Assembly (NCBI GenBank): GCA_037147155.1
Contig: JBAWVR010000001.1
Location: 1 to 58,842 of the forward strand
DNA length: 58,842 nt
Reading direction: 5' to 3'
Origin: a bacterium
Lineage (GTDB): Bacteria > Patescibacteriota > Minisyncoccia > Phycocordibacterales > GWA1-40-21
In this document: positions 30,063 through 53,694 of the stretch, in pieces
Layout: every line of letters begins with the position of its first letter
How positions within the stretch are numbered: position 1 is the first letter of the stretch
Notes under the pieces: generated by a model
Seen by the model: only the letters and a program-made list of their open reading frames with translations
Database searches by the model: none
Told to the model about the DNA's origin: nothing
Position numbers and translations under genes: made by a program

Positions 30063-30165
30063 AGCCCTGTCTAGTCTTTTAGCTACAATCGGACACAAAA
30101 AACACTTACGGGTCAAATGCGATATTGTGAGTTTGTGTCCTGTCTTGTTGTATTTTCTTCGTCCT

Positions 30166-30190
30166 GGATTCCCGCCTGCGCGGGAATGAC
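30166..30190. repeat. family C palindrome (GGATTCCCGC..GCGGGAATGAC), solo half
   Basis: GGATTCCCGCCTGCGCGGGAATGAC, the same unit as at 34826-34850 and, in reverse complement, at 53466-53490. Confidence 0.8.
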
Positions 30191-30303
30191 AGAGGAGAAA
30201 AATCTCTTTCATTATTGCCTTTAATTATGGTAAAATTAGGACAAATACCAGAGACTGACATGACTGATTTTCTTATTAGAAACACCACCTAAAATTAAAC
30301 CTA

Positions 30304-34745: not shown

Positions 34746-34768
34746 AATAAAGCAAACCTCTACTGTTT

Positions 34769-34850
34769 GTCATTCCCGGCTTGACCGGGAATCCAGACCT
34801 TAAGTTACTATCACCTCCTCAACCTGGATTCCCGCCTGCGCGGGAATGAC
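34769..34850. repeat. family C composite palindrome (two inverted GTCATTCC hairpins)
   Basis: GTCATTCCCGGCTTGACCGGGAATCC (34769-34794) and GGATTCCCGCCTGCGCGGGAATGAC (34826-34850), separated by 31 nt. Confidence 0.8.
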
Positions 34851-34865
34851 AGAAAAATGAGCTTG

Positions 34866-46438: not shown

Positions 46439-49400
46439 CTATTTAACCAACTTTAACTTAAACTCACTCTCCCCGACTTTTAACACCTCTCCTTCCACTG
46501 TTCCAAAATCAATTTCTACTGTTGCTGTCTTTTTGATTTCTTCTTGATAAAGGGTGACCAGAGTTTTACCGGCGTCATCTGTCTCGATAGTCAATTTGGC
46601 AATCTCGCCAGGATTGAGTCCAGTAGTTTTTCTCATTTCTTGAATCTGACGCAAGAGGTCGCGGAAATTTCCTTCTAACTTCAGTTCGTCAGTAATGTTC
46701 AAATCTAATTTAGTTGATTCATCTAACTTATCATCAAACAACACAGCCTTAACATTCACTTCATCAATAATTAGATTTAGGAAATCATCTTTACCAGCGA
46801 GAGTTTTATCTTTGACAGTCATTGATGCAAGTGGCTGGCGAACTTTCTGTCCGGCTTTAGCACGCATTTCTAATCCAACACTCACCAAACGACGAGTCTC
46901 AAACATGTTGCCCAAAAGTTCAGTATCCTTGGAATTTAATTCTGTCGCCTTTGGCCAATCTGCCAAGTGCACTGATTCTTTGTCGGTTTCAGTCTTCAAA
47001 GATTGATACAAAGTTTCGGAGACAAACGGCATGATTGGAGCCAAGAGCTTGGTCATTTCCAACAAAACATATCTAGTGGTCATAAGACCCTGATCTCTAT
47101 CTTCTACTACATCAGACTTGAAACGATCACGGGAACGACGCAAATACCAAGTAGACAAATCATCAACGAAATCTCCGAACGGACGAGCAGCCCGGTCTAG
47201 TTCATAATTCTCCAAGCCTTTGGTAACCGTCGCAGTTAATTCTTTGAGACGAGCCAGGATCCAGCGGTCCAAAACATTGGTACTGTCAGCGCTTGGAGCC
47301 AAAGGTTTTTCTCCCTTGTACATCTCGTAGAAAGAATGCACGTTTTGCAAACGCATAATTATTTTTTTGACCACTTCATCAACGCCCTTTTCAGAGAAAC
47401 GTAGGTCTTCAGCTTTGACCACTGGGCTAGACAAGAGATAGTAACGCAAAGCATCAGCACCGTATTTAGACACCACCAGCATTGGGTCAGGATAGTTTTT
47501 CAAGCGCTTGGACATTTTCTGACCATCTTCCGCCAAAACAATTCCGTTCACCACAACATTTTTAAATGATGACTTGCCAAACAATCCAACAGCAATAACC
47601 AACATCGAGTAGAACCAGCCACGAGTCTGGTCGAGTCCTTCACCAATAAATTCAGCGGGAAAACCTATCGCCTTTTTGAGGAAGCCAGGCTCTGGATTAA
47701 ACTTGTCCAAATTCTCATATGGATAGTGCCACTGGGCATAAGGCATGGAACCAGATTCAAACCAACAGTCAAAGACTTCTGGCACACGCTTCATCTCTTT
47801 ACCTTCACCACAAGCACAAGGAATCTTTACTTCATCAATATATGGTCGGTGCAAATCCAATTCATAATTGTCATTGTGTGGAATTGGAGTAAAGTCCAAT
47901 TTCTTCACTTCAGCGTTCTTGATAAAATCATGAGCTTCATGACGCATAGCAATCGCTTGATCTGGAGTCATGCCGGCAGCGCCAGCAAACATAAGCCAGC
48001 CTGGTGTATTGTGCGTCACTATCAAAATCTTTTTACCGGAATATTTTGAATTTATATCATACAAGAAGCTCACCATACGGTTCTTCACATCAGTGTGACT
48101 TTCTCCTCCTTCTGGTACTTTGTGGAATTTTTCTTCACGAGAACCAAAATATGCCTGATACTCGGCATCGGTTTTTCCATCCATCACCCCAACATTTATC
48201 TCTGACAATCTTTTATCAAAAATAATTTTGTCTTTACTAAAACCAATCATATCAGCGATTATTTCTACGGTTTCTTTGGTACGAACAAAAGGTGAAGCAA
48301 AAACCATATCGATTTTTTCTTTCTTTAGATTCATCGCCGTCTCCCGAGCTTGTTCCCTACCCAATGCTGTCAAAGGATTTGGATCATCTACTTTAGCTGA
48401 CAAAATCTTTTTAACATTACTCTCTGATTGACCATGGCGAACAACCAAAAATTCATTTCTCTGACCAATCGTTTTTTTCAAATCCTCAACTCCTCCAATT
48501 ACTTTAATAGCTTTACAATCTTCACAACGCCAAATTGGCAATGGTGCTCCCCAATAACGAGAACGAGAAATTGCCCAATCACGAGCGCCTTCAAGCCATT
48601 TACCAAAACGTCCTTCGCCAATTTCTTTTGTTACCCAATTAATATCATTATTTGCCTTGAGCAAACTATCACGCATCTTGGTCACTTCCACGAACCATGA
48701 TGAGGTCGCGTAGTTCAGCAATGGAGTATCACAACGCCAACAGTGTGGGTAAGAGTGCACGACTTTTTCTTTGGCAAACAACTGATTCTTGCCAGCCAAA
48801 TGCTTAATCATGGCGATGTCCATAGACATATGCTTTTCTTTTTCTTCAGCGGTATCGATAGGTTTTACATACTGTCCGGCAAATTCAGTCACTTCTGGTC
48901 GCATCTTACCGTCATAGGACACATGCTGGATAAACGGCATCTTGTATTCTTTGCCAAGATTCAAGTCATCCTCACCGAAAGCTGGGGCGATATGCACCAC
49001 ACCAGTACCATCTTCGGTAGTGACAAATGAAGCAGGGTAAATTTTGAAACCATTCTCCAAATTCTTTATATCACTACCCGGCTTGGTGTAATAATCAAAT
49101 AGTGGAATATATTTTTTACCCACCAAAGTCTGACCATTAAATTTTTCTACCAATTCGTAAGTGTCCTTGATAACTGACAAGCGACTTTCCGCGAGAATAT
49201 AAAATTCCGCACCAACTTTAACTTTGACATAATCAATATCTGGATTAATCGCCAAGGCCACGTTGCCCGGCAAAGTCCAAGGAGTTGTCGTCCAAGCGAG
49301 AACGTATGCTCCCCTCTCATCGGCCAATTCAAATTTAGCAGTAGCGGTAATATCGGTAATATCTTTATATCCTTGAGCTACTTCAAAGTTGGACAAAGTG

Positions 49401-49981
49401 GTGCCACAATGTGGACAAAGATGCATAGATTTGAAACCTTCATAGACCAAACCTTTTTCATGAAGTGTACGGAAAATCCACCACACAGACTCGGTGTAGC
49501 TAGAGTTTATGGTGCGATAGTCTTGCTCCATATTCACCCAACGTCCCACTCTCGGCACAATCTTCTTCCATTCATCCGCATAACGCATCACACTTGAGCG
49601 TGCACGCTCATTAAAATCTTTTAGTCCGTAATCTTCAATATCTTTTTTTGACTTTAAGCCCAGTTCTTTTTCCACAATGTTTTCCACTGGTAAACCGTGA
49701 CAATCCCAACCCCATTTACGGTCAACATGAAAACCACACATAGTGCGGTAACGTGGAATAACATCCTTGATAGTACCAGCGAGGAGGTGGCCATAGTGAG
49801 GCAGGCCGGTCGCAAACGGTGGACCATCGTAAAAGACATATTCACCTTTTGGTGATTCCTTGGCTAGAGCTTTTTCAAAAATATTATTGGTCTGCCAAAA
49901 AGCCATAGTCTCCTCCTCTTTTTGGGCGAGAGCACTCTTTGGAAAATCAAAATCCTGTTCTGCTTCTTTGTTGTCTGACAT
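46439..49981 (-). CDS. ileS: isoleucyl-tRNA synthetase (type 2-like) with an inserted histidine-phosphatase domain
   Basis: 1180-aa ORF: PHYGHLLAG (HIGH), an editing domain, KMSKRLKN, and an extra ~190 aa with RHGQSESN ... SPFVRTKET ... GGESH ... VTHN at residues ~508-697. Confidence 0.9.
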   Translation of the reverse strand: MSDNKEAEQDFDFPKSALAQKEEETMAFWQTNNIFEKALAKESPKGEYVFYDGPPFATGLPHYGHLLAGTIKDVIPRYRTMCGFHVDRKWGWDCHGLPVENIVEKELGLKSKKDIEDYGLKDFNERARSSVMRYADEWKKIVPRVGRWVNMEQDYRTINSSYTESVWWIFRTLHEKGLVYEGFKSMHLCPHCGTTLSNFEVAQGYKDITDITATAKFELADERGAYVLAWTTTPWTLPGNVALAINPDIDYVKVKVGAEFYILAESRLSVIKDTYELVEKFNGQTLVGKKYIPLFDYYTKPGSDIKNLENGFKIYPASFVTTEDGTGVVHIAPAFGEDDLNLGKEYKMPFIQHVSYDGKMRPEVTEFAGQYVKPIDTAEEKEKHMSMDIAMIKHLAGKNQLFAKEKVVHSYPHCWRCDTPLLNYATSSWFVEVTKMRDSLLKANNDINWVTKEIGEGRFGKWLEGARDWAISRSRYWGAPLPIWRCEDCKAIKVIGGVEDLKKTIGQRNEFLVVRHGQSESNVKKILSAKVDDPNPLTALGREQARETAMNLKKEKIDMVFASPFVRTKETVEIIADMIGFSKDKIIFDKRLSEINVGVMDGKTDAEYQAYFGSREEKFHKVPEGGESHTDVKNRMVSFLYDINSKYSGKKILIVTHNTPGWLMFAGAAGMTPDQAIAMRHEAHDFIKNAEVKKLDFTPIPHNDNYELDLHRPYIDEVKIPCACGEGKEMKRVPEVFDCWFESGSMPYAQWHYPYENLDKFNPEPGFLKKAIGFPAEFIGEGLDQTRGWFYSMLVIAVGLFGKSSFKNVVVNGIVLAEDGQKMSKRLKNYPDPMLVVSKYGADALRYYLLSSPVVKAEDLRFSEKGVDEVVKKIIMRLQNVHSFYEMYKGEKPLAPSADSTNVLDRWILARLKELTATVTKGLENYELDRAARPFGDFVDDLSTWYLRRSRDRFKSDVVEDRDQGLMTTRYVLLEMTKLLAPIMPFVSETLYQSLKTETDKESVHLADWPKATELNSKDTELLGNMFETRRLVSVGLEMRAKAGQKVRQPLASMTVKDKTLAGKDDFLNLIIDEVNVKAVLFDDKLDESTKLDLNITDELKLEGNFRDLLRQIQEMRKTTGLNPGEIAKLTIETDDAGKTLVTLYQEEIKKTATVEIDFGTVEGEVLKVGESEFKLKLVK

Positions 49982-50061: not shown

Positions 50062-50395
50062 ACCACAACTATGTCATCCGCCCTGGGCGGATCCCCGCCC
50101 GAACGGACCGAGTCCGCTCGGTACGGGCGGGCAGGCAACCTTTCCGTTAGGAAAGTCCAAGAAATGACAATTAAAAAAATGGCGTCTCCTCCGGGATTCG
50201 CCACTTCGTGCAACCAGGTCGTATCAACGACCGGGTCTTGGTATGCCCGCTTGGGGCAACTTTGGGATTTCGATGTACACGGTACACCTCCTTCTCTGCA
50301 AAAGAACTTCTGTTTAGTTTTTGACCACAGTCTTCCGAGAATGCGGTCCGGATGAATAGACTACAACACGGCTCAATAAAAGTCAAATGTTTTAA
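50062..50395 (+). ncRNA. rnpB: RNase P RNA (bacterial), boundaries approximate
   Basis: Conserved blocks occur in the correct order and spacing: GGAAAGTCC (~50149), GTGCAAC (~50209), ACGGTACACCTCC (~50279), GATGAATAGACT (~50350), ACAACACGGCTCAATA (~50364). 5' TCATCCG pairs with 3' CGGATGA. A strong terminator follows. Confidence 0.65.
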
Positions 50396-50509: not shown

Positions 50510-50628
50510 GTCATTGCGAGGTATTCCGAAGCAATCCAGTCTTAATGGCGTTTTTTAACTAAAGGTCTGCCCGCCCGTACCGGACGGTACGTTCGGGCGG
50601 GGATTGCTTCGGAATACCTCGCAATGAC
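50510..50628. repeat. composite palindrome: two inverted 28-nt GTCATTGC hairpins around a GC-rich hairpin
   Basis: GTCATTGCGAGGTATTCCGAAGCAATCC (50510-50537) and its exact reverse complement (50601-50628). CCCGCCCGTACCGGACGGTACGTTCGGGCGGGG (50570-50602) lies between them. The repeat overlaps the last ~25 codons of the RT ORF. Confidence 0.8.
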
Positions 50629-51622
50629 CCGACGTCTCAGTTACCTCTTTGGACAACCTCCCAGCATTCCCATGCCTCAACATCCCCAAGTACGACTGCA
50701 CGGTCGCCTCTTTACCTTGTTTCTCTGCAATATTCCTAAACATTCTTTTCTTGGTGGCATTACGAATCACTCGGTGGTCATTAAAATGCACCCACCCGAG
50801 AAAGTCCACTCCCGAAGCCACAGTTGATACAGAAACCTTATTGGGGTGAAGTGTGAGTTTTAATTCAGCTCCGAGGAATTCCCCAACTTTGACCAAAACC
50901 TCTTCCAACCACTTTTTGTCCTGCGACATAAAAACAAAGTCATCAGCATATCTAATATAGTGCTTGGCTTTTAGTTTATGCTTCGCAAATTGGTCAAACT
51001 TATTCATATAAATATTTACCAGTAGTTGAGAAGTCAGATTCCCCAAAGGCAAACCAACACCCGCATGAGTAGAATGAAAACTCCCGACGATTTTCTGGAG
51101 CAGTCCCCGAATATCTTCATCTGGTATGTATTCAAAAAGTATTTTCAATAAAACATTATGGTCAATACTCGCAAAAAACTTTTTAATATCACACTTCAAT
51201 ACCCAAACAGTCTTAGTGTGATTACAAGAAACTTGGTATTCAAATTTTCTAAATGTTTCTATTGCTTTGTGTGTGCCTTTGTTCACCCGACACGAATATG
51301 AGTCGCTAATGAAAGTCTTGTCGAAAAATGGGTAAAGGATTCTATATAGAGCATGGTGGAGCAATCTGTCTCTCACTCTGGCTTTGTGAATACTTCTTGG
51401 CTTGGGGTCGGAAATATTGAAAGCTTGATAGGGCGAGTGAACATATTTTTTATCCCTTAAATCTTCATGCAAAGAAATAATATTTGTCATTAAATTCCTT
51501 TCAAACTCTCTGACATCTTCCCGACTTTTCTTGCCTACGACAAATTCTTTCCAAGCCAAAAGCAGATTTTCCAGAGAAATAATGTTACTATACTTTTGTT
51601 CAAAAACTTTTTTGTTATTCAT
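50555..51622 (-). CDS. DGR-type reverse transcriptase
   Basis: 355 aa from MNNKKVFEQ (ATG 51622; the track ORF starts at 51697). Contains RT motifs, LPLGNLTSQLLVNIYMNKFD (GNLTSQ as in DGR RTs) and YIRYADDFVF. No maturase or endonuclease domains. A TR/VR pair lies nearby. Confidence 0.85.
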   Translation of the reverse strand: MNNKKVFEQKYSNIISLENLLLAWKEFVVGKKSREDVREFERNLMTNIISLHEDLRDKKYVHSPYQAFNISDPKPRSIHKARVRDRLLHHALYRILYPFFDKTFISDSYSCRVNKGTHKAIETFRKFEYQVSCNHTKTVWVLKCDIKKFFASIDHNVLLKILFEYIPDEDIRGLLQKIVGSFHSTHAGVGLPLGNLTSQLLVNIYMNKFDQFAKHKLKAKHYIRYADDFVFMSQDKKWLEEVLVKVGEFLGAELKLTLHPNKVSVSTVASGVDFLGWVHFNDHRVIRNATKKRMFRNIAEKQGKEATVQSYLGMLRHGNAGRLSKEVTETSGHCEVFRSNPRPNVPSGTGGQTFS

Positions 51623-51643
51623 AACTATTACAACATAAAATAC

Positions 51644-52025
51644 ATGACTATGACGCCCCCCCCCCGCAAAATTATTACCTCTACTACAAAAACTCAAGGA
51701 TAATTATATTCTCTGGTATAGCTACTATTTAACCCTACCTAAACTCCACCGTCATTCCTTGGGTCAAAAAATTGACTGCTTATATATTGAGATTATTGAA
51801 GCCATATCTATTGCCAGTTATCTATCTAAGGAAGAGAAACTGCCATGGGTTAGACTTGCCACCCGCAAGACTGACACTCTCAAAATATTACTTTTGGTTT
51901 TATGGGAAACCAAATCACTTGATAACAAGAAGTATCTAGCCGTATCGGTAAAAATTGAAGAAATCGGACGGATGCTTGGCGGTTGGAGTGGTCAAATATC
52001 TAAACAAAACTCTCCCAACAAATAG
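51644..52025 (+). CDS. avd: Avd-like four-helix-bundle accessory protein, reading frame broken at a C10 tract
   Basis: The track ORF 51759-52025 (TTG start) encodes ...LGQKIDCLYIEIIEAISIASYLSKEEKLP...EEIGRMLGGW. The same frame is open back to 51654 and encodes the expected first helix (ILWYSYYLTLPKLHRHS). The only ATGs (51644, 51650) are out of frame by one C of the run at 51656-51665. Confidence 0.6.
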
Positions 52026-52046
52026 TCGGGAGAGAAATAGAGAGAG

Positions 52047-52183
52047 TTGCGACGCAGGAACACGAAACGATTGTCTGCATTGTAGAAGTTGTCAGCATGG
52101 CCATTGTTGCTATTGAGCCACAACTCGCCATCATCATTGCACTTCACATTGAACACCTTGAGGTCGCCGTCCGAGTCGGTTAT
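52047..52183 (-). repeat. DGR template repeat (TR), 137 nt
   Basis: Aligns without gaps to 52542-52678 (121/137 identical). At all 16 mismatches this copy has T on the plus strand, which is A on the transcribed minus strand. Confidence 0.9.
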
Positions 52184-52434
52184 ATATAAAATATCATCCA
52201 TATCACTGTCCTTTGAATACTCTCAAGACTGTATCTAATTTGGCATCGTAATGCTCCAATATTTTATACCAAGTATCTCTTGTTTTTAATAATACACACA
52301 CCACTCTATCCAAAACCTTGATCTTGAATACTCTCGATGTATGGATACTGTGTTCGGTAGTAGAAAACCGTAATCTTCCACATATTCACCTACTTACTTT
52401 TTTATTATAGCAGACACGACCGTTTTTGAATATT

Positions 52435-52472
52435 AAAAAAGCACCCTCATTGCCGAAGCAAATTGAGGGTGC
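52435..52472 (-). terminator. rho-independent terminator after the DGR target gene
   Basis: GCACCCTCATTGCCGAAGCAAATTGAGGGTGC hairpin followed by TTTTTT on the minus strand. Confidence 0.7.
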
Positions 52473-52537
52473 CGGAGAGCCGAGAGAGAGCAAAGTACAA
52501 AGGGACAAAGAAGTCCCAAGGTTCTTAGCTCTGAGAA

Positions 52538-53179
52538 CTACTTGCGACGCAGGAACACGAAACGATGGTCAGCATTGTAGAAGCGGCCAGCATGGCCATA
52601 GTAGCTAGAGAGCCACAACCCGCCATCATCACCGCACTCCACATGGAACACCTCGAGGTCGCCGTCCGAGTCGGTGATGGGTTCCATCGCAATGATGATC
52701 CATTCTCCTCTCGGCTGGTCCTGGTACTGCAAACGCAGTTGGGGACCAACTTCGGCAGGACAGAGGTCGAGACCAAGCTTGATAGCTTGCTCGTAGATTT
52801 CCTTGATGCTAGCCCCTTCCTTGAAGCCAAGCTCGCGAACCGAGAGATTCACGAGATCAACCTCGTTTTCCGTAGTGGACACGCTGGCTTCAAAAGCAGA
52901 CTTGCCGAGGATATCGTTGGCCCAGTCGCTGATATTGCTACCAGCTTTCTTCAGAACCTTACGGAAGTCACCGGCATTCTTGGGCCCGGTGCCGATCTTG
53001 ATGGTCTTCCAGATCGGGAAGTCCTTATCAACTTCATCCAAAATCAGGGCCTCGAGAACCTCTTGCAGTCTTGTGGGGTTTCCCATCCACTTCTGCATTT
53101 TTTCCCCTGTGAGTCCGGCCGGAAGGCAGGTGCACATGGCGGAGATGAAAGCGGCGGTCTGTTTGTTAATTGTGCTCAT
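52538..53179 (-). CDS. DGR target protein (213 aa), fold not recognised
   Basis: ORF with AAGGAA upstream of the ATG. The last 45 codons are the VR. No signal peptide or TM helix. Visibly GC-richer than the surrounding sequence. Confidence 0.8.
   Translation of the reverse strand: MSTINKQTAAFISAMCTCLPAGLTGEKMQKWMGNPTRLQEVLEALILDEVDKDFPIWKTIKIGTGPKNAGDFRKVLKKAGSNISDWANDILGKSAFEASVSTTENEVDLVNLSVRELGFKEGASIKEIYEQAIKLGLDLCPAEVGPQLRLQYQDQPRGEWIIIAMEPITDSDGDLEVFHVECGDDGGLWLSSYYGHAGRFYNADHRFVFLRRK
52542..52678 (-). repeat. DGR variable repeat (VR)
   Basis: Counterpart of the TR. It begins one codon before the stop codon of the target gene, and the 16 differences from the TR all lie at TR-adenine positions. 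Confidence 0.9.
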
Positions 53180-53337
53180 GGTGTTTTTTCCTTTCTTAGG
53201 TTTTCACCATTTTATGCTTGACCATCAAACGCGATGGTCATAGCCAGAAACCTATGTTTTATGCCAGTTTACTGGCAAACAAGGGCTTGTGGCTATGACC
53301 ATTTAAGTAGTTTTCTTAGTCAAAGAACTATGTATAT

Positions 53338-53366
53338 AGTATACACCCTTTGAAGTCTTTTGTCAA
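53338..53366 (-). promoter_or_regulatory. near-consensus sigma70 promoter for the DGR target gene
   Basis: Minus strand: TTGACA (53366-53361), 17 nt, TATACT (53343-53338). Confidence 0.55.
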
Positions 53367-53442: not shown

Positions 53443-53465
53443 AACACTTCCTTTTTTTCTCCTCT

Positions 53466-53555
53466 GTCATTCCCGCGCAGGCGGGAATCCAGTCTTATCT
53501 TTAAGACTTTCCTATCGGAAAGGTCGCCTGGATTCCTGGTCAAGCCAGGAATGAC
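53466..53555. repeat. family C composite palindrome
   Basis: GTCATTCCCGCGCAGGCGGGAATCC (53466-53490) and GGATTCCTGGTCAAGCCAGGAATGAC (53530-53555). Confidence 0.8.
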
Positions 53556-53617
53556 ACAGAAGAAAGCCGTAATTTGCTTCGCAAATTCCGGCTTTGGTTT
53601 TATACGTAGTCGATTCG

Positions 53618-53654
53618 CCCGCCCGTACCGAGCAGACTCGTCCGTTCGGGCGGG
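53618..53654. repeat. GC-rich hairpin, near-copy of the putative rnpB P3 hairpin
   Basis: The reverse complement of CCCGCCCGTACCGAGCAGACTCGTCCGTTCGGGCGGG matches 50094-50131, differing only by one indel and one substitution. Confidence 0.75.
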
Positions 53655-53694
53655 TATCATTCGTACAATTCGTATATTGGTATATTTACCTACA

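Follow-up and report, generated by a model that had tools for sequence, protein, structure and literature searches.

What becomes of a diversity-generating retroelement (DGR) when the gene for its accessory protein is assembled out of frame with its own start codons? This question is raised by a locus at positions 50555 to 53179 of a 58,842-nt stretch of DNA (contig JBAWVR010000001.1, positions 1 to 58,842, assembly GCA_037147155.1) from a member of the Patescibacteriota (Minisyncoccia; Phycocordibacterales; GWA1-40-21); this stretch is referred to below as the window. A first-pass annotation had described a complete DGR at this site. We found that the reverse transcriptase (RT), an Avd homologue, the template repeat (TR), and a target gene bearing the variable repeat (VR) are all present, but that avd (accessory variability determinant) has no in-frame start as assembled. 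A run of 10 cytosines (C10) parts the gene from its start codons, so that the word "complete" is not supported by the assembled sequence. We consider it probable that the locus is a Patescibacteria DGR with a slippage-prone switch on avd, and the evidence for and against this explanation is set out here.

From its sequence, there is hardly any doubt that the locus is a genuine DGR. Re-alignment of TR (52047 to 52183) and VR (52542 to 52678), both on the minus strand, reproduced the gapless pair of 137 nt with an offset of 495 that had been described at first pass. The recount also returned the same 16 differences and no mismatch at a non-adenine position: all 16 are located at TR adenines, which are T on the plus strand and A on the minus strand. 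Given 37 adenines in the 137-nt TR, the probability that 16 of 16 differences fall on A by chance is 4.3e-11 (hypergeometric). These adenines are replaced in VR by G, C, and T in 7, 5, and 4 cases, respectively. VR forms the last 45 codons of the target gene; 14 of the 16 changes occupy codon position 1 or 2, the TR reading frame contains 8 AAY codons, and the protein-level pattern, in which Asn, Lys, Glu, and Asp give way to His, Glu, Gly, Ser, Tyr, and Arg, is as described. TR and VR do not differ in the final 25 nt of the repeat, as had been noted, but this segment contains only three A's. Its invariance is thus largely trivial and uninformative as to the proposed likeness to an initiation of mutagenic homing (IMH) sequence; the comparison of TR and VR revealed no distinct pair of IMH and IMH*. 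The 58.8-kb window contains no further TR-like copy and no second RT, avd, or target paralogue, and scans of the whole window with Rfam (gathering thresholds) and for tRNAs returned nothing. The element is chromosomal, with the housekeeping genes argS and ileS on either side.

The RT gene (50555 to 51622, minus strand) encodes 355 amino acids that match Pfam RVT_1 (2e-25). Both the YADD motif and the DGR-type motif reported for it at first pass are present, the latter as GVGLPLGNLTSQ, which conforms to the DGR-typical [LIV]GxxxSQ. In a comparison with PDB sequences, the closest solved structure was the Bordetella bRT (8ub7_A; 157 bits, E = 9e-45), whereas group II RTs reached 84 bits and the retron Ec83 RT reached 30 bits. 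A look-up of the RT sequence gained no further assembly.

The avd gene (51644 to 52025, plus strand) is flanked by TR and RT and runs counter to both of them and to VR. The Avd-like open reading frame (ORF) that had been seen adjoining RT is indeed a homologue, but it is encoded on the plus strand and, as called (51759 to 52025), spans only positions 31 to 104 of the Avd profiles. Upstream, the Avd frame is open to position 51654. The ATGs at 51644 and 51650 are in another frame, and the C10 run lies in between (51656 to 51665, plus strand; on the minus strand, it precedes the RT ATG by 33 nt). No other G/C run in the window reaches 7 bases. A tract of C9 or C12 would restore an in-frame avd of 126 or 127 amino acids, starting with MTMTPPP(P)AKLLPLLQK. 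The frame-corrected protein aligned with positions 1 to 102 of the 104 positions of NCBIfam model NF033474, with a score of 58 bits that is under the curated cutoff of 80, and it passed the gathering score of Pfam bAvd (44 versus 40 bits); a phmmer search of the PDB sequences gave nothing meaningful. No alternative ATG, GTG, or TTG occurs in the Avd frame before residue ~38 (TTG at 51759), which is past the first helix, and the first Avd helix is therefore untranslatable from the assembled frame. When in-frame versions of the strain's Avd were devised with two to four prolines and with either ATG, a collection of 15 billion proteins contained no exact match to any of them, and an exact-pattern scan of JGI metagenome contigs for the tract flanks of the strain returned nothing. 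The start codons of RT and avd face each other at a distance of 21 to 27 nt (51620 to 51652). The promoter of each gene must hence lie inside the other gene, and any read-through transcript from TR to RT would be fully antisense to the avd mRNA. In many relatives (e.g., L034, L045, and L072) the two starts overlap head to head, with ATGGCTCAATTGAATTTTCAT read on both strands.

Is the interrupted avd a peculiarity of this contig? We retrieved related loci via the target (79 loci, GTDB genomes) and via the RT (80 loci, metagenomes), of which 100 carry both RT and avd. In all 100, avd is inverted and located immediately upstream of RT. The full order target(+)-TR(+)-avd(-)-RT(+) was observed in ~40 related genome loci, and 621 of the 653 mismatches in 36 related TR/VR pairs were at TR adenines. 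A simple-sequence repeat is present at the same position of avd in 85 of the 100 loci, whose RTs are 57 to 71% identical to that of the window. The repeat is poly-C in 78 cases, (CA)n in 4, (CT)n in 1, and a tetranucleotide in 2; the poly-C tracts have their mode at C10 and extend up to 13 bases. This site is exceptional: 76 of the 79 G/C runs of at least 8 bases in 984 kb of related loci are the avd tract. Of the 85 repeat-bearing loci, 35 have an in-frame avd ATG, compared with 13 of the 15 in which no repeat is present (Fisher P = 0.0015). The Avd frame of the 48 poly-C loci without an in-frame ATG was offset by one base in 32 cases and by two bases in 13, the remaining 3 being ambiguous, and all reading frames occur among the poly-C loci. 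As to other start codons, the first helix offers only TTG or GTG in 23 of the 78 poly-C loci, and a further 22 lack an in-frame start altogether. A conserved Pro-Pro-Pro peptide was considered as the cause of the C run and ruled out by codon usage together with the (CA)n and (CT)n replacements: CCC accounts for 28.5% of the proline codons elsewhere, and an all-CCC run for three prolines is expected in ~2% of cases. The di- and tetranucleotide replacements argue, moreover, against any G- or C-specific function. From the sequence comparisons, we are confident that the avd repeat has been selected for and is very probably not a product of chance.

Tract length also differs among near-identical sequences, although such pairs are few and consist of consensus assemblies. 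The window and two further assemblies of the strain (L001 and L003) have C10 and another (L002) has C11, which is the sole difference in 3.7 kb. The closest relative (protein P0123, locus L165; 91% identical) has C12 and is in frame, reading MTTTPPPPAKLL..., and two loci that are 98% identical have C11 (L009) and C10 (L089). Among loci that share a 100% identical target gene, three samples have C9 in frame (L178 to L180), and two loci have C10 out of frame (L177 and L182). In one strain, contigs end inside the tract (L176, after at least 15 bases, and L183, after at least 13), and L181 is chimeric exactly there. These breaks could be due to population heterogeneity or to a poly-G artifact of two-color chemistry, and they are a caveat for any survey of tract length from assemblies.

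What could such a repeat do? At this locus, the TR-containing RNA would be transcribed from the minus strand, and RT, aided by Avd, would reverse transcribe it, inserting random nucleotides opposite the adenines of the template. The resulting cDNA would then replace VR at the 3' end of the gene for the 213-amino-acid target, and this retrohoming would rewrite ~13 codons of a putative ligand-binding surface that is weakly C-type lectin-like. This path from TR RNA through mutagenized cDNA to VR replacement is established for DGRs and inferred for the present locus. The hypermutable repeat immediately follows the avd start codon and immediately precedes the first Avd helix; at this place, replication slippage would change its length and move avd in or out of frame. 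As Avd is required for cDNA synthesis in the DGRs that have been studied, its loss and gain would make mutagenic retrohoming itself phase variable; Handa and colleagues are said to have found in 2018 that the Bordetella system needs Avd for cDNA synthesis. The fixed position of the repeat, the interchangeable repeat types, the length polymorphism, and the presence of all frames next to intact repeat-free genes together point to a slipped-strand contingency locus. As for contingency loci in general, the repeat is a 5' coding repeat far above background (85 of 100 loci; 76 of 79 G/C runs), and changes in its length toggle the frame between near-identical genomes, in a small sample of assemblies. 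We lean toward the view that the repeat acts as a heritable ON/OFF switch on Avd. The element in the window, with C10, is then most likely in the OFF state, since avd is out of frame in the window and equally so in the sister assembly with C11. The VR, which is identical across five consensus assemblies, fits this state, with the proviso that minor variants cannot show in a consensus. For the broader proposal that slippage of the avd repeat stochastically and heritably switches the whole retrohoming machine across a large Patescibacteria DGR clade, so that one hypermutation system would gate another, we regard the case as evenly balanced.

Several observations weigh against a heritable switch. 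All evidence on tract length comes from consensus assemblies, so that heterogeneity within populations and reversibility are inferred, and G/C homopolymers of 9 to 13 bases are error prone in Illumina data, with two contigs breaking inside the tract. The C9 and C10 alleles of L177 to L182 are on differing haplotypes (~98% identical in the avd region) and are not proven switches within one clone. Irrespective of tract length, Avd might be made from the first helix onward in the 23 poly-C loci where TTG or GTG is in frame there; the window has no such codon. The fraction of repeat loci that are in frame (41%) is near the 33% expected if the frame were irrelevant, which also fits slippage in transcription or translation. 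In addition, ~29% of known DGRs have no accessory gene according to Wu et al. (PMC5758913), and the dependence on Avd is accordingly an assumption for the present clade.

Some of these points are shared with other explanations. The locus might be an ordinary DGR with a tract that has no regulatory role, the C10 frameshift being due to an error of sequencing or assembly or to a recent inactivating mutation. The error-prone nature of homopolymers of 10 or more bases, the contigs that break or are chimeric at the tract (L176, L183, and L181), and the mere handful of comparable near-identical pairs speak for it. We nevertheless consider it improbable, because four independent assemblies of the strain are out of frame, three with C10 and one with C11, and because error does not explain why 85 of 100 loci, with RTs only 57 to 71% identical to that of the window, retain a repeat at this codon position, why some lineages carry di- or tetranucleotide repeats in place of poly-C, or why 76 of 79 long G/C runs in ~1 Mb coincide with this site. 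Nor does random error fit the finding that 59% of the repeat loci have no in-frame ATG whereas avd is intact in 13 of the 15 loci that lack a repeat. Slippage at the RNA level, by polymerase stutter or by a ribosomal +1 shift at CCC-C, would yield some Avd from any tract length and make the repeat a constitutive attenuator instead of a heritable switch. At CCC-C, tRNA-Pro readily allows +1 shifts, and transcripts of long homopolymers are heterogeneous; the window allele requires exactly a +1 shift on a CCC-C run, and all three frames are well populated, with the near-random in-frame fraction given above. This is the alternative that we take most seriously, but it is still unlikely: (CA)n, (CT)n, and tetranucleotide repeats are classic substrates of replication slippage and not known sites of transcriptional or ribosomal slippage, and programmed frameshift sites normally hold a single frame relationship, which is not the case here.

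The repeat might also work mainly on the other strand, where it is a poly-G tract that could tune the translation or transcription of RT, through pairing like that of a ribosome-binding site (RBS) or through promoter spacing, or could belong to the DGR RNA. The predicted distance from the G run to the RT start clusters at 7 to 20 nt in relatives (33 nt in the window), and the starts of RT and avd are as close together as described above. Over all relatives, however, this distance spans -13 to +45 nt, and (TG)n, (AG)n, and tetranucleotide repeats cannot stand in for a G-rich RBS. The promoter scan found no sigma-70-like promoter with the tract as spacer, and a conserved, terminator-like hairpin past TR (see below) suggests that the core TR RNA ends ~340 nt short of the tract. 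A main role of the poly-G as a Shine-Dalgarno-like or promoter-spacer element was rejected on account of the variable distances and of the non-G repeats in some lineages, and we hold a function on this strand to be highly unlikely overall. The proposal furthest from ours, that the locus is not a DGR but a retron or group II RT beside a repeat pair produced by chance or assembly duplication, is effectively refuted. It could draw on the best NCBIfam match of the RT, a group II RT/maturase model (151 bits, under its cutoff of 300), but this collection contains no DGR-RT model. Against it stand bRT as by far the nearest solved relative, the [LI]GxxxSQ motif, the mismatches confined to adenines, the same arrangement of TR, VR, avd, and RT in ~100 independent loci, and the presence of the same locus in five assemblies.

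The target gene (52538 to 53179, minus strand) encodes 213 amino acids with a helical N terminus and a C-terminal domain that is weakly C-type lectin-like. The protein had no match in Pfam or NCBIfam, and neither a signal peptide nor a transmembrane segment is evident. Its family comprises at least 1,426 proteins (E ≤ 0.001), of which those with an organism name are from Patescibacteria (candidate phyla radiation [CPR]); an identical protein is deposited at NCBI as a hypothetical protein from a metagenome-assembled genome. When 40 members were aligned, the core proved conserved, and the columns that vary were those of the VR positions. An AlphaFold2 model had a mean confidence (pLDDT) of 91.7, and its top Foldseek matches in the PDB were carbohydrate-recognition domains of C-type lectins. 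These matches are weak (E = 0.04 to 1; target-normalized TM scores of 0.42 to 0.46), and the model suggests that the C-terminal domain likely has a C-type lectin fold. The 50 best Foldseek matches listed did not include any known DGR variable protein, and a Foldseek comparison with viral models gave weak, scattered matches only. The G+C content of the target gene region (52425 to 53221) is 0.50 to 0.55, compared with 0.34 to 0.39 for RT and avd and ~0.40 to 0.45 for the neighbors.

Neither RT nor avd lies within 5 kb in about half of the genome loci found via the target family (e.g., L006, L012, L014, and L020). For instance, target P0083 (L166 to L175) is located between tatD and rpsF on 14 contigs from many samples, with no adjacent DGR, and so could not serve in comparing tract lengths. 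Such genes either act as remote targets for a DGR located elsewhere in the genome or are orphans. In some relatives (P0063 and P0074), the called ORF runs from a full target-like N-terminal domain into an Asn-rich, TR-like end and on into antisense avd, which suggests that TR may be embedded there in another, full-length copy of the target gene. At L177, a segment of ~660 nt (positions 925 to 1584) is repeated at an offset of 523 nt, overlapping itself, across the VR-TR region (L177/L005).

Candidate signals for transcription are found around each part of the element. Upstream of the target gene there is a promoter-like site on the minus strand (53338 to 53366; TTGACA-17-TATACT, 11 of 12 consensus positions), and a weaker consensus match (52261 to 52289, minus strand; TTAAAA-17-TAAAAT, 9 of 12) lies ~70 nt upstream of TR and may drive it. 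A third site (51612 to 51641, plus strand; TTGTTA-18-TAAAAT, 9 of 12) directly precedes the avd ATGs within the 5' end of RT; like the site before the target gene, it is called promoter-like from its match to the consensus. The strong terminator that had been reported after VR was recovered at 52434 to 52473 (minus strand) as the intrinsic terminator of the target gene, with a GC stem, a UUCG loop, and six U's (-22.7 kcal/mol, z = -4.5). The small GTTCT-N8-AGAAC hairpin reported along with it is absent from the minimum-energy fold. What follows VR and the stop codon instead is a nested imperfect hairpin (52487 to 52532, minus strand; central GGGAC-N6-GTCCC at 52517 to 52502), and a comparable nested hairpin is present after VR in most related loci. 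The 121-nt region that includes this hairpin and the terminator folds with z = -5.1 relative to shuffled sequence. By analogy, the nested hairpin is the counterpart of the post-IMH hairpin or cruciform of other DGRs.

Thirteen nucleotides past TR, a 10-bp hairpin followed by UUUUGUUU is located at 52002 to 52034 on the minus strand (-17.6 kcal/mol, z = -4.8), where it overlaps the stop codon of the oppositely oriented avd. Conservation of the hairpin extends to 41 loci, and compensatory changes were seen in 5 of 7 pairs. The TR RNA may have its 3' structure or terminator here, in which case the hairpin would be the equivalent of the spacer region. If it does act as a terminator, RT would be made by read-through or from a promoter that did not turn up in our scan.

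The element is surrounded by modular palindromic repeats, located at 50090 to 50157, 50510 to 50628, and 53456 to 53660 and, farther away in the window, at 30164 to 30202 and 34768 to 34853. A GC hairpin (CCCGCCCG...CGGGCGGG) occurs three times, each copy flanking the DGR. The outer copies (50090 to 50157 and 53505 to 53658) are mutually inverted, and one of the hairpins is enclosed by a perfect 28-nt inverted repeat (50510 to 50537 and 50601 to 50628). We considered that the flanking GC-hairpin repeats might be the terminal inverted repeats of a mobile DGR cassette. Since other modules of the 53456 to 53660 element recur elsewhere in the window, the palindromic repeats look like dispersed elements of the repetitive extragenic palindrome (REP) or miniature inverted-repeat transposable element (MITE) type. 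The last ~24 codons of RT (residues ~332 to 355; 50555 to 50628) are encoded by the flanking palindromic repeat. The homology of the RT to its relatives stops at residues ~320 to 354, mostly near 327 to 333, and the repeat seems to have taken the place of the native 3' terminus of the gene, stop codon included. In the neighborhood of the DGR, the isoleucyl-tRNA synthetase (46439 to 49981, minus strand; 1,180 amino acids) is an unusual fusion, in which a His_Phos_1 histidine-phosphatase domain with an RHGQSESN motif is inserted between the two halves of tRNA-synt_1.

To our knowledge, the regulation of DGR activity is largely unknown, and metagenomic surveys sort DGRs simply as "active" or "inactive." If the switch proposed here is real, the avd repeat would offer a simple genetic explanation for an on/off pattern of DGRs in a very DGR-rich bacterial group. 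It would amount to bet hedging on mutability, in which most cells retain a working receptor variant and a minority reshuffles it. There is also a practical consequence for genome annotation: pipelines call such avd genes truncated "four helix bundle" ORFs or miss them, and the completeness of DGRs in Patescibacteria genomes is therefore likely misjudged.

How does the element compare with known systems? It is a new member of the known Patescibacteria (CPR) DGR group, and apart from the repeat in avd, the DGR itself is ordinary. Wu et al. 2018 (PMC5758913) describe a distinct "B3" arrangement of avd and TR in 90% of CPR DGRs, which presumably corresponds to the inverted avd between TR and RT seen here. 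Roux et al. 2021 (PMC8144416) describe a DGR clade 2 that is restricted to Patescibacteria and whose targets have no recognizable domains. The element in the window resembles the DGRs of these groups in host group, chromosomal location, and adenine-specific mutagenesis; in core parts limited to avd, TR, and RT without another accessory gene; and, as in clade 2, in a small target without a recognizable transmembrane segment or Pfam domain. It is thus not different in kind. A homopolymer, simple-sequence repeat, or frameshift in avd is mentioned neither in the text of PMC5758913 nor in that of PMC8144416, and a full-text literature search, which did not extend to the CPR DGR paper of Paul et al. 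2017, found no link of DGRs to homopolymers, simple-sequence repeats, or phase variation of DGR genes. We believe the conserved repeat in avd to be a new feature.

The DGR of Bordetella phage BPP-1 (mtd-avd-TR-brt) shares with the element a related RT (157 bits to bRT, with GxGxPxGxLTSQ and YxDD in common), a four-helix-bundle Avd homologue, a VR at the 3' end of the target, A-rich AAY codons, and a hairpin after VR. In BPP-1, however, all genes are on one strand and avd lies upstream of TR, whereas avd is inverted and placed between TR and RT in the window. Furthermore, the spacer after TR consists here of a single hairpin and a U run that overlap the 3' end of avd, no distinct IMH/IMH* pair is visible in the window element, and the target is a small cellular protein instead of the phage tail-fiber protein of BPP-1.

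With respect to the repeat, the closest parallels are the contingency loci of other bacteria, e.g., the poly-G/C tracts of Campylobacter, Neisseria, and Bordetella and the tetranucleotide repeats of Haemophilus. The avd repeat resembles them in being a homopolymer or short-unit repeat within the first codons of a gene, in varying in length among close relatives such that each change toggles the frame, and in differing in repeat type at one position across lineages. Known contingency loci control mostly surface structures or restriction-modification systems, whereas the repeat described here would, as far as its sequence context indicates, control a component of another hypermutation system, in a host from the Patescibacteria.

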